Source: an uncultured Trueperaceae bacterium
GTDB lineage: Bacteria; Deinococcota; Deinococci; Deinococcales; Trueperaceae
Length of the DNA: 64,000 nucleotides
Direction of reading: 5' to 3'
Assembly (NCBI GenBank): GCA_963815215.1
Contig: CAWFFU010000008.1
Coordinates: forward strand, 64,001-128,000
In this document: positions 56,250 through 59,443 of the stretch, piece by piece
Layout: every line of letters begins with the position of its first letter
How positions within the stretch are numbered: position 1 is the stretch's first letter
Notes under the pieces: model-generated
What the model saw: the letters and a program-made list of their open reading frames with translations, nothing else
Databases searched by the model: none
Told to the model about the DNA's origin: nothing
Program-made: the position numbers and the translations under genes

Positions 56250-57596
56250 TCAACCGCTCACGGCCTCGCCGTGACCCGTCCCCAGCGCATCGGCCAGCCA
56301 CCCCTCGAAGGACGCGAGACCGCGCCGGTACATCGCCGTGCGGCGCTCCTTCTTGCCCTGCCCTTTGCGCTTGGGTAGGGCCGGCACCAGGCCCCAGTTG
56401 GCGTTCATCGGCTGGAAGCCGTCGGGGTTGGCGCCCGCCAGGAAGCGCACCAGGCCGCCCAGCATGCTGTCCTCGGGCGGCAGCACGCTCTCCAGTCCGA
56501 GCGCCCTGCGGGCGGCGTTGGTACCTGCCAGCCAGCCCGTCGCCGAGGACTCGAGGTAGCCCTCGGTGCCCGCCAGCACGCCGGCCGTGAACCACTGAGG
56601 GTGCTCGCGGAAGCTCAGGCTCGGCTCCAGCAGGCGCGGAGCGTTGAGGTAGGTGTTGCGGTGCATGACGCCGTAGCGCACGATGTCGGCCTGCTCGAGC
56701 CCGGGGATGGCGCGCACCACCTCCTTCTGGTCGCCCCACGCGAGGCCCGTCTGGAATCCCACCAGCGACCACATCTGGCCGCGGGCGTCCTCCTGCCGCA
56801 TCTGCGCCACCGCGAAGTAACGGTCGCCGGTCTCCGGGTGCTCCAGCCCGACCGGCTTCAGGGGGCCGAAGCGCGGGGTGTCGTAGCCGCGCCGCGCCAG
56901 CTCCTCGATCGGCATGCAGCCCTCGAAGAACTCGAGCTTCTCCCAGTCGTGCCCAACGTGCTTGCGCGCCGCCGTGAGGAGCTCATAGAAGGCGTCGTAG
57001 CGCTCCTTGCTGAACGGCAGGTTCAGGTAGTCCGCCGCCTGGTCGTAGCGGCCCTTGCGGAAGGCGATGTTCATGTCGACACTGTCGACGTCGATGACCG
57101 GCGCCGCCGCGTCGTAGAAGCCCAGGAAGTCGGTGCCCAGGCGCTCCTTCAGCGCCGCGGCCAGCGCGTCGCTGGTGAGCGGGCCGGTCGCCAGCACCAC
57201 GATCCCCTCGGGCAGCGACGCCAGCTCGCCGGTGTGCACCGTGATCAACGGGTGCGCGCGCACCGCCTCGGTGACGGCCCGGCTGAAGGCCTCGCGGTCG
57301 ACGGCCAGGGCGCCACCAGCCGGCACCCGGCAGGCGTGTGCCGTGGTCAGCACCACCCCGCCGGCAGCCCGCATCTCGGCCTGCAGCAGCCCCTTGGCGT
57401 TGCTCTCCCCCTCGCCGCCGAAGCTGTTGGAGCACACCAGCTCGGCGAAGTCCCCGGTGTGGTGGGCGGGCGTCATGGCGACGGGGCGCATCTCGTGCAG
57501 GTGCACGCGCACGCCCAGGCGCGCGGCGGCGAGCGCCGCGTCGCTGCCGGCCATGCCGGCTCCGACGACGGTGATGGAGGGCCGTGACTCGCTCAT
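56250..57596 (-). CDS. trmFO: Folate/FAD-dependent tRNA m5U54 methyltransferase TrmFO
   Basis: GAGMAG, AELVCSNS, ALAVDR, FYDAAAP, FFEGCMPIE, VGFQT, RYGVMHRNTY. Confidence 0.96.
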   Translation of the reverse strand: MSESRPSITVVGAGMAGSDAALAAARLGVRVHLHEMRPVAMTPAHHTGDFAELVCSNSFGGEGESNAKGLLQAEMRAAGGVVLTTAHACRVPAGGALAVDREAFSRAVTEAVRAHPLITVHTGELASLPEGIVVLATGPLTSDALAAALKERLGTDFLGFYDAAAPVIDVDSVDMNIAFRKGRYDQAADYLNLPFSKERYDAFYELLTAARKHVGHDWEKLEFFEGCMPIEELARRGYDTPRFGPLKPVGLEHPETGDRYFAVAQMRQEDARGQMWSLVGFQTGLAWGDQKEVVRAIPGLEQADIVRYGVMHRNTYLNAPRLLEPSLSFREHPQWFTAGVLAGTEGYLESSATGWLAGTNAARRALGLESVLPPEDSMLGGLVRFLAGANPDGFQPMNANWGLVPALPKRKGQGKKERRTAMYRRGLASFEGWLADALGTGHGEAVSG

Positions 57597-57643
57597 CCGG
57601 TGAGTGTAGCAGCGCCCCCGTCGTGCGCCGGTCCGCCCCGACG

Positions 57644-57807
57644 CACGCGAACCACCCCGCTCTGCAGGGTGGTCCGTGGGTGGCTCTCAGGCGCTCAGGG
57701 GGGGACGCCAGGCCGAGTTCGCGATTCGGCTCACCTACAAGGTACGCCCCCATCAGGAGAGGGCGATGACTGGGAGGTGAAAAGGCTGAGCGAGCCGAAG
57801 GCGTCTC
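57644..57807. ncRNA. Candidate structured RNA of unknown family
   Basis: Six complementary segment pairs within ~165 nt of intergenic DNA, two of them crossing (pseudoknot). See findings. Confidence 0.45.
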
Positions 57808-57887
57808 GCGGGACGTTGCACCGTCGCGTACGGGGCGCATCCGGGGCGCATCCGGACCGACTAGACTGGGCCTCGACGGGAGGCGCC

Positions 57888-58391
57888 ATGCAATCCACCC
57901 CTTCGGCCGGATCGATCCAGGAGGCCATCCCCAACAATCACTGCTGGGGTTGCGGCACGTTGAACCCGGAAGGCCTGCACATCCACAGCCACTTCGAGGG
58001 CGACACGTCGGTGTGCGTGCACCTGCCGGACGCCGCCTTCATGGCCGGCCCGACGCACGTGCTCAACGGCGGCATCCTCGCCACGCTGGTCGACTGCCAC
58101 TGCGTCTGCACCGCCATCGCCGACGCCTACCAGAGCGAGGGGCGTGCCGTGGGCGAGCCGCCCGAGATCTGGTACGCCACGGCCAACCTGTCGCTGGACT
58201 ACCGGCGCCCCACGCCGCTGGAGGGTCCCGTCACGCTGCGCGCGCAGATCGTCGAGCGCTCTCCGCGCAAGCGGGTCCTGCGCTGTCGCGTGGACGCGCG
58301 GGGCGAGCTCACCGTGGAGGCGACGGTGGTGGCGGTGCGGGTGCCGCCCGAGTGGCGCGAGGCCCACGGGCACGCCGGTGGCCGCGTGTGA
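57888..58391 (+). CDS. PaaI-family hotdog thioesterase
   Basis: CWGCG.LNP.GL, NGGILATLVDCH, TANL.LDY.RPTP. RBS GGAGG. Confidence 0.85.
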   Translation: MQSTPSAGSIQEAIPNNHCWGCGTLNPEGLHIHSHFEGDTSVCVHLPDAAFMAGPTHVLNGGILATLVDCHCVCTAIADAYQSEGRAVGEPPEIWYATANLSLDYRRPTPLEGPVTLRAQIVERSPRKRVLRCRVDARGELTVEATVVAVRVPPEWREAHGHAGGRV

Positions 58392-59443
58392 ACGGTGCCA
58401 TGGGGCGCCGCGGGCGCGCGCTCGCCGTGCTGGCGCTGGCGCTCGCGGCCGCCGCCATGCCGGCCCGGACCGCGACCGCCCAGAGCGCCGCCGTGGGACA
58501 GAGCCCCACGGCCTGGAGCGCTCTCTACCGCGGCACGGCAGGACCCGCCCCGGCGGTGCTCGAGCTGACGCTGCGGGGCCCGCAAGCGAGCGGCCGGCTG
58601 CTGCTCGACGGCCACAGCGTCACCCTCGAGGGTCACGGTGCCATCGACGCCTCCGGCGCCGTGACCCTCACGCTGGAGGGCCCCGACGGCGCGGTTCGCG
58701 GCGCGCTACGCGGGAGCCGTTCGTCGGCCCCCAACGACGACGGCCGCAGCTTCCGCGGACGCCTCACCCTCGCCGGCGCCAGCGAGCCCGTCACCCTGCA
58801 ACGCGTAGCACAGTTCGTGGACCTCGACGTGCGCGAAGGCCCGATCCACGTCAGTTTGCGCTACCCCAGCTTCGCCGGCGGCCCGCTGGCGGCGCTCAAC
58901 CCCGCCATCGAGCCGGCGGCGCGCGCGGGGCTGATCGCATTCATCGACCAGGGCCGGAGCGCGCAGGCGGCCGGCGAGCTGTTCCACGGCTGGGAGCGCA
59001 TCACCACCACCCGGATCGAGGGGCTGGCCGGACCCTTCGTGAGCCTGCGCACGCAGAGCTACGTCTACAGCGGCGGAGCTCACGGCAACACCAGCTACGC
59101 CACCCACACCTGGCGCCTGGGCGGACCGGCCCCGCGCGAGCTGCGGCTGTCCGACCTGTTCCGGCCGAACGCGGCGTATCTGCCGCGGCTCGTCCCGTTG
59201 GTGCTGGCCGACCTCGAGGCGCAGCACGCGACCTGGGTCGTCGACGGGCAGATCTCCACCCTCGGCGAGGCGGACCTGGCGCTGTTCTCGCTCACCCCGG
59301 CCGGGTTGGCGTTCACCTTCCCTCCCTACGCCATGGGGCCGTACGTCGAGGGCACCTTCACGGTGGTCGTGCCCTACCGGAAGCTGCTCGACCTGGCGCT
59401 TCCCGGCGGCGCCATCGACGCCTTCAACGGCGCGACGCCCTGA
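58388..59443 (+). CDS. Secreted RsiV/PdaC-like protein (DUF4163 and DUF3298)
   Basis: Signal peptide; YSGGAHG; L.LSDLF; F.F.PY.MGPY..G. Start GTG 58388 or ATG 58400. Confidence 0.8.
   Translation: MNGAMGRRGRALAVLALALAAAAMPARTATAQSAAVGQSPTAWSALYRGTAGPAPAVLELTLRGPQASGRLLLDGHSVTLEGHGAIDASGAVTLTLEGPDGAVRGALRGSRSSAPNDDGRSFRGRLTLAGASEPVTLQRVAQFVDLDVREGPIHVSLRYPSFAGGPLAALNPAIEPAARAGLIAFIDQGRSAQAAGELFHGWERITTTRIEGLAGPFVSLRTQSYVYSGGAHGNTSYATHTWRLGGPAPRELRLSDLFRPNAAYLPRLVPLVLADLEAQHATWVVDGQISTLGEADLALFSLTPAGLAFTFPPYAMGPYVEGTFTVVVPYRKLLDLALPGGAIDAFNGATP

Follow-up and report, generated by a model that had tools for sequence, protein, structure and literature searches.

What occupies the gap between trmFO and its divergent neighbour in a Trueperaceae genome, and is an RNA encoded there? 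The window analysed is a 64,000-nucleotide (nt) stretch of contig CAWFFU010000008.1 from an uncultured Trueperaceae bacterium, whose genome (G000) comprises 3.32 Mb in 14 contigs, is 97% complete and has about 70% G+C. In the window, an intergenic gap of 291 nt separates trmFO from a divergently oriented 4HBT thioesterase gene. It holds a stretch (57644–57807) that a sequence-only reading had flagged as a multi-helix, pseudoknot-capable element, offering four identities for it: a novel small RNA (sRNA), a cis-regulator, a ribozyme or a mobile remnant. The novel sRNA fits best: a single-copy block in the gap is conserved and syntenic, its hairpins are kept in relatives, and Rfam has no match for it; nothing suggests a ribozyme or a riboswitch. 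The reading that we prefer, with a probability of about 0.55, is that the stretch would be a stand-alone gene for a trans-acting sRNA with its own promoter, located on the minus strand just ahead of trmFO and read in the same direction.

The BLASTN search for other copies and orthologues that had been proposed for this locus was run with the 292-nt intergenic region. The element is single-copy in G000, where the other matches are 15–54 nt long with E values of at least 0.04, and it has orthologues in relatives: in a search against 40 of them, the block was found in seven of the nine genomes of the same genus. A 30-nt match in G018, which belongs to another genus of the same family, was not counted, and the intergenic region had no BLAST match in 16 genomes sampled from four other families of the order. 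In the alignment, the block, which extends over about 57641–57791, has 72–92% identity, and both of its flanks are unalignable.

Two covariance models were then applied to genomes of the family. The first (R1) detected the element in eight of the nine same-genus genomes, and two other genera contributed a single carrier each (G048, 68.8 bits; G019, 42.4 bits). The second (R2, 15 sequences) gave 110 and 82 bits for the matches in genera g25 and g11, and added no genome among the 128 family genomes. A 21-bit match in G050 was treated as false, since it was gone with R2, and two weak matches (30–32 bits) in the unpublished genome G118 are not relied on. A pattern confined to the left part of the block, outside the hairpins, yielded seven contigs of Trueperaceae/Deinococci metagenome-assembled genomes, seven metagenome contigs, which contributed four new distinct sequences, and three evident chance matches. 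The latter, two in Lysinibacillus and one in an archaeon, come from unrelated genomes of lower GC and have only partial covariance-model matches of 17–20 bits. The element is found in 11 of the 128 Trueperaceae genomes searched and in four metagenome contigs, and the record titles from the pattern scan place the relatives in the Trueperaceae, order Deinococcales. These 15 distinct sequences, 11 of them found without any motif, form the comparison set used below.

The element always immediately precedes trmFO and shares its strand, even in G048, where the thioesterase neighbour is missing, and synteny is kept in all carriers; together with the single copy in the genome, this conserved synteny refutes a mobile remnant. 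Numbered from the predicted transcription start, conservation begins at about −58 and ends immediately after the 3′ hairpin. Judged by these comparisons, the block is a real conserved feature, and its bounds and internal order are those of a compact gene: a putative promoter from about −58 to −7, followed by a predicted RNA of about 91 nt.

The promoter half of the block (57790–57739, read on the minus strand) is built of invariant islands, CTCAGCCTTTTCA, GTCATC, TCTC and TAnnnT, separated by spacers of variable sequence and fixed length. The putative −10 hexamer, TACCTT in the window (57739–57744), occupies the same alignment column in all 15 sequences, and only the middle three bases of its TAnnnT pattern vary freely. 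All 15 sequences also have a purine 7 nt downstream of TAnnnT, at or beside which the first conserved hairpin begins. No alignment column on the plus strand contains TAnnnT in even four of the 15 sequences. As far as sequence alone can tell, the predicted RNA has a promoter of its own directly upstream (TAnnnT and a purine at +7).

This arrangement agrees with the rest of the genome. Among the open reading frames (ORFs) of at least 150 codons in G000, 115 have TAnnnT 6 nt ahead of the ATG and 125 have it 7 nt ahead, whereas background spacings give about 20 each, a 5- to 7-fold enrichment, by which TAnnnT at 6–7 nt before +1 is the usual promoter geometry of this genome. For Deinococcus deserti, a TAnnnT consensus of the −10 element and a majority of leaderless mRNAs are reported (PMC4007540). 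G000 seems to be rich in leaderless mRNAs as well.

Upstream of the −10 hexamer, the island TCTC (57760–57757, about −28 to −25) is invariant in the 15 sequences, and in GTCATC (57770–57765, about −38 to −33) the first five bases are found in all of them and the final C in 14. The uppermost island, CTCAGCCTTTTCA (57778–57790, about −58 to −46), is nearly invariant, and conservation stops at once beyond it; it is possibly an activator site or an UP-like element. The three islands have TCA-like cores, centred near −49, −38 and −27 and thereby spaced by roughly a helical turn. The combination of a poor −35 region with three conserved upstream islands that carry such cores suggests that the promoter depends on an activator. 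A position weight matrix of the 52-bp promoter found no second site in G000 (74.5 bits for itself, 9.7 for the next best), and therefore no regulon points to the regulator. The islands may resemble direct repeats of the PhoB/PhoP type, a likeness kept as a lead. For the segment 57733–57791, roughly the right-hand third of the flagged interval, a role as promoter DNA of a gene on the minus strand is the better reading, and one as part of an RNA the poorer.

The predicted transcript, of about 91 nt, runs on the minus strand from 57732 to about 57642 (57640–57732 at its widest). Its 5′ end would be 57732 (or 57731) and its 3′ end would lie a few nucleotides past the last hairpin, at about 57640–57645; these ends follow from the end of the conserved block in the 15 sequences, the purine after the −10 hexamer and a minimum free energy structure of three hairpins. 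Hairpin A (57710–57732) is a 5′-terminal stem-loop with the core GCCGA/UCGGC (57726–57730 with 57712–57716), a stem that is extended to the 5′ end and a 9-nt loop with a GGAA/CGAA motif. Counted over the 15 sequences, 95.6% of its alignment cells are paired, with one double change, from A-U to G-C, in G048. Hairpin B (57690–57709), overlooked by the sequence-only reading, pairs GGCGU (57709–57705) with GCGCC (57694–57690) around the loop CCCCCCCUGA in the window. All of its 66 lettered cells are paired, in combinations that include GC/GU and UG/UA/CG; its loop varies from 7 to 13 nt, and the loop or the stretch aligned to it reads CCCC or more in 11 of the 15 sequences. A further unpaired run of C lies in the linker after it (ACCCAC/CCCCCAC). 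Hairpin C (57646–57679), a GC-rich 3′ stem-loop of 12–14 base pairs (bp), is formed by CGGACCACCCUGC ... GCGGGGUGGUUCG. It is 97.1% paired, with a nearly invariant stem and a loop of 3 to about 8 nt that is variable in sequence, and it looks like a terminator without a U-tract.

Taken together, 97.2% of the 362 cells of the three hairpins pair, against 34–42% when the partners are slid by one to three columns. Four of the 25 pairs change on both sides, and none of 500 shuffles reaches the covariation score. The sequences and lengths of the loops vary while the stems stay, which would be expected of RNA hairpins rather than of protein operators. A kissing interaction between the loops of hairpins A and B (CAGG/CCUG) was considered and rejected, since by eye it is not kept in the window, G008 and G009. 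As for the strand, 352 of the 362 cells in the covariance-model alignment pair on the minus strand versus 327 on the plus strand, and 29 versus 4 cells are G-U.

The U-less hairpin at the 3′ end is not unusual in this genome: among 4134 perfect 8-bp hairpins with loops of 3–8 nt in the first contigs of G000, T-rich tails occur at about the binomial expectation, that is, at the rate of chance. Canonical U-tract terminators look rare in G000.

From these features the following course is proposed. An activator-dependent promoter with its TAnnnT −10 hexamer at 57744–57739 would drive the minus-strand gene, and transcription would start at the purine at 57732 to give the RNA of about 91 nt. This RNA would carry, in order, the 5′ stem-loop, a hairpin whose loop is rich in C in most relatives and that leads into a C-rich linker, and the long GC-rich 3′ hairpin, which would end or stabilise the transcript. 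By analogy with other sRNAs of high-GC bacteria that have C-rich loops, the C-rich loop and the linker, the obvious candidate seed, may pair in trans with G-rich stretches of mRNAs that resemble Shine-Dalgarno (SD) sequences. The conservation, synteny, single copy, kept hairpins and promoter-like geometry are observations; from them we infer that the gene is transcribed, that the transcript has these ends and that it acts in trans.

A number of observations weigh against the sRNA gene on the minus strand. One invariant position in the lower stem of hairpin C, which is A·C on the minus strand and G·U on the plus strand, lay outside the covariance model and emerged on a structure-blind MAFFT alignment; with it included, the tally becomes 352 (minus) versus 342 (plus) of 377 cells. 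By free energy, the consensus hairpins do better on the minus strand in nine of the 15 sequences and on the plus strand in six, the latter including the three most divergent ones. The structural evidence on the strand is consequently mixed, and for this reason the strand call rests mainly on the one-sided promoter motif and not on the wobble pairs. Covariation is thin, with 14 of the 25 pairs never varying, and since the 15 sequences are close kin and their alignment was fitted to the structure, the shuffle counts overstate the support; we regard the covariation as real but thin. The 93-nt RNA folds no better than shuffled sequences (z −1.59, 13 of 200 as good), and the same holds for the opposite strand. 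The C-rich loop of hairpin B is replaced by CCGAGA, CUGAGA or CCUAGA in four of the 15 sequences. No −35 element is recognisable, a scan with the sigma-70 consensus finds no promoter here on either strand, and a terminator scan finds nothing on either strand, the 3′ hairpin having no U-tract. Finally, the four metagenome sequences were retrieved by a pattern in which the promoter islands and TAnnnT were obligatory, and they are no test of those features.

The constant place of the element raises the question of whether it serves trmFO itself. This gene (56250–57596, minus strand) belongs to the GIDA/TrmFO family (Pfam GIDA, E 1e-92). Its −10 hexamer, TACACT (57603–57608), is outside the predicted sRNA and 6 nt before the ATG (57596–57594), in a context, GCTGCTA(C/G)ACT-N6-ATG, that the window shares with its three most distant carriers (G048, G007 and G019), three further genomes spanning three genera. 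By eye, no SD is visible ahead of the trmFO ATG in any of the four, and because of this and of the −10 hexamer so close to the start codon, the trmFO mRNA is probably leaderless. An alternative that we consider unlikely, though the likeliest of the rivals, is that the block is the structured 5′ leader of a tandem trmFO promoter, with hairpin C as an attenuator or weak stop and trmFO regulated in cis. Read-through would cross the trmFO promoter and either occlude it or yield a leadered mRNA with an internal AUG that has no SD. The element does keep its place on the same strand upstream of trmFO in three genera, even where the other neighbour differs; it is only about 25–140 nt from the trmFO −10 hexamer, termination at a hairpin without a U-tract may be leaky, and the missing SD would suit such a leader. 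However, all four sequences keep a perfectly placed −10 hexamer for trmFO itself (TA(C/G)ACT-N6-ATG), the stretch from hairpin C to that promoter differs in length among them and is not conserved, no alternative pairing of the antiterminator kind is conserved, and linkage among such close relatives may be plain synteny.

A bolder proposal, improbable in our estimate, combines both outcomes and makes the element a switch that acts on a leaderless gene. Transcription from an upstream promoter, activated under certain conditions, would read through the U-less hairpin across the trmFO promoter and replace a translatable leaderless mRNA by a leadered, SD-less and poorly translated one, at the same time releasing the C-rich sRNA. 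If true, such a regulatory logic would be peculiar to leaderless mRNAs and would link the m5U54 methylation of transfer RNA (tRNA) to an external signal.

Some of the same evidence could be accommodated by DNA alone. Short invariant islands with variable spacers of fixed length, as in the left part of the block, are typical of protein-binding DNA, and most of the stem columns are invariant, so that pairing is hardly put to the test; with the mixed structural evidence on the strand and folding no better than that of shuffles, a regulatory region might be imagined in which islands and inverted repeats bind proteins to regulate both divergent promoters, with no functional RNA as a product. We find this rather unlikely. 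The spacing between the arms of the inverted repeats varies (7–13 nt in the loop of hairpin B, 3–8 nt in that of hairpin C), which dimeric operators rarely tolerate, and such changes as are seen preserve the pairing (in hairpin A, A-U to G-C; in hairpin B, the types GC/GU and UG/UA/CG). In addition, a TAnnnT with a purine at +7 directly precedes the first hairpin, and the distance from the element to the promoters is not fixed, with about 70 nt to the thioesterase −10 hexamer in the window and about 140 nt to that of trmFO in G019.

The sequence-only reading had drawn its element mainly on the plus strand, and all six of the complementary segment pairs that it listed are present at the coordinates given, with plus-strand mismatches at 57650/57674 and 57750/57760. 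The 164-nt stretch also folds somewhat better than dinucleotide shuffles (plus strand, z −2.32, 5 of 200 as good; minus strand, z −2.11, 4 of 200), which in a sequence of 70% GC is weak evidence. Counted on eight same-genus orthologues (alignment A1), the full multi-helix fold fails: only 80.2% of the cells pair, and 103 of 500 column shuffles do as well. Two of its hairpins hold, at 57649–57675 (94% of cells paired) and 57712–57730 (93%). The closing helix (57702–57709 with 57800–57807) is 75% paired and has its 3′ arm in unconserved sequence, the TCACCT/AGGTGA helix reaches 72% with mostly one-sided changes, and the inner CGCCCCC/GAGGGCG helix, at 54%, is not kept. The proposed pseudoknot, CGCTCAG/CTGAGCG, pairs in 87.5% of the cells, and it joins two invariant islands, shows no two-sided change and, by reading, is absent in G007. 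In the unconserved spacer, a small local hairpin at 57801–57816 (plus strand; CGTC/GACG around TCGCGG, then TT), similar to CGTCCTGGAC in G005, G002 and G009, competes with the closing helix.

From that fold came a plus-strand model, a structured leader or sRNA in which a GGAG-like SD, sequestered by TCACCT, and a four-codon mini-ORF would control the thioesterase. The mini-ORF itself is there: by reading, ATG-ACN-N6-TGA is kept in 14 of the 15 sequences (the exception is G004, where the TGA is gone and the frame would extend to seven codons), and a GGAGA/CGAGA motif is found 6–7 nt upstream of it in all of them. The four-codon frame arises automatically, however, because its ATG and TGA are complementary to the TCA cores of two islands (GTCAT and TTCA) that are 11 bp apart; read on the plus strand, GTCATC and TCTC become GATGAC and GAGA, the start of the mini-ORF and its supposed SD. 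Its codons 3 and 4 are not conserved. The model can claim the six sequences whose consensus hairpins gain stability when read on the plus strand, and the one invariant G·U that exists on that strand only. As a functional unit it lacks a promoter, since no TAnnnT column is shared by at least four of the 15 sequences and no TA-containing hexamer occurs upstream on the plus strand in the window, and this speaks equally against an SD sequestered there; the helix that would do the sequestering is the one paired at 72% with one-sided changes.

The thioesterase, in turn, appears to be provided for separately. Its gene (PF03061, 24.2 bits; plus strand, ATG at 57888) is preceded, outside the element, by a −10 hexamer, TAGACT (57862–57867), and an SD, GGGAGG (57878–57883), so that promoter and start together span 57862–57890. 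A conserved CTAGACTGGG, followed by GGGAGG and the ATG, is found there, with CTA(G/C/A)ACT(G/A)GG kept in eight orthologues, and about 70 nt of unconserved sequence separate this −10 hexamer from the element. The claim that both flanking genes have −10 boxes of their own is thereby borne out by the relatives. G048 retains the element without a thioesterase at the locus, its divergent neighbour being a homologue of the next gene in the window (58394–59443). With the conserved −10 hexamer downstream of the element and the element kept where the thioesterase is absent, a cis-regulator of the thioesterase is not sustained, and the plus-strand model as a whole is very improbable.

Two observations on these neighbours may be added. 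In G007 (L028, about 1657–1685), the unconserved spacer of about 70 nt that elsewhere parts the element from the thioesterase promoter is absent, and the thioesterase TAGACT directly abuts the CTCAGG island of the element, an island only 27 nt from the thioesterase start codon. The next gene in the window encodes a secreted protein with FHGW and GGAHG motifs, and its homologue in G048 (L027, 362–1435, minus strand), the divergent neighbour there, has an apparent leaderless start of its own, TACACT-N5-ATG.

Conservation by descent only, that is, functionless intergenic DNA that has not yet diverged, might be argued from the thin covariation and from the few related Trueperaceae genera to which all carriers belong, but it is scarcely credible, given that the sequence on either side of the block is unalignable in the same alignments, that the block has 72–77% identity where trmFO itself has about 77–80% at the DNA level, and that it is still recognisable in g25 and g11 at the R2 scores given above.

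The minus-strand sRNA gene remains, then, the reading to be set against known RNAs. The comparison with Infernal that had been proposed, run against Rfam 15 on 56500–59000 and then on 57620–57810 with E up to 10, gave no family at its gathering score and none at half of it; the impression that the element fits no riboswitch, tRNA, signal recognition particle, transfer-messenger RNA or RNase P consensus is in line with this. The best sub-threshold match was the Transposase-2 RNA motif (RF03015), on the minus strand at 57663–57727 (16 bits against a gathering score of 42.7, E 0.39). It is taken as a chance match, the matched GAAUCGCGAAC not being conserved and most relatives having ACAGGAAGC instead. 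The element is not a 6S RNA either, which needs about 180 nt with a long closing stem and a central bubble, as opposed to three local hairpins in about 91 nt. The Rfam 6S model (RF00013) has no match in G000, and this model matched only five of 14 control genomes; a divergent 6S RNA may be present in G000 yet missed by it. Full-text searches of open-access literature on Truepera and Deinococcus brought up no description of an RNA like the element.

If transcribed, the element would give the Trueperaceae a candidate sRNA family, carried by a few genera that are known mostly from metagenome-assembled genomes. Being compact and well delimited, the gene would be an easy test case for sRNA action in a phylum with mostly leaderless mRNAs that have no SD, the usual target site, and its conserved upstream islands point to a putative activator.

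One of the closest known systems is the 6C sRNA of Actinobacteria, which has two C-rich loops. Like it, the element would be a short stand-alone sRNA of a high-GC bacterium with a hairpin that presents a run of at least six C. Unlike 6C, it belongs to the phylum Deinococcota, matches no Rfam family (6C included) and has only one C-rich hairpin loop, the second C-rich stretch being a linker, and four of the 15 homologues have no C-run. The C-rich loops of the Mycobacterium tuberculosis 6C RNA are described as binding several mRNA targets without a chaperone (PMC6486639), and the Corynebacterium glutamicum RNA as having its own promoter (PMC5014011). The element is in the same way predicted to carry its own promoter and to expose a C-rich loop in most relatives. 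In Firmicutes, C-rich unpaired motifs of sRNAs of the RsaE/RoxS type have been proposed to pair with G-rich ribosome-binding sites; here the likeness is one of presumed action only, with no Rfam match, no sequence similarity and, in this analysis, no sign of a tie to a known regulator. Within the phylum, transcriptomics has revealed sRNAs of Deinococcus, the Dsr RNAs and PprS, and by description the element is like them in kind, being intergenic, shorter than 200 nt and apparently equipped with its own promoter. By analogy, the element may work like the C-rich-loop sRNAs 6C and RsaE/RoxS while being a member of neither, and it probably represents a new sRNA family of an ordinary kind, restricted to a few genera of the Trueperaceae.

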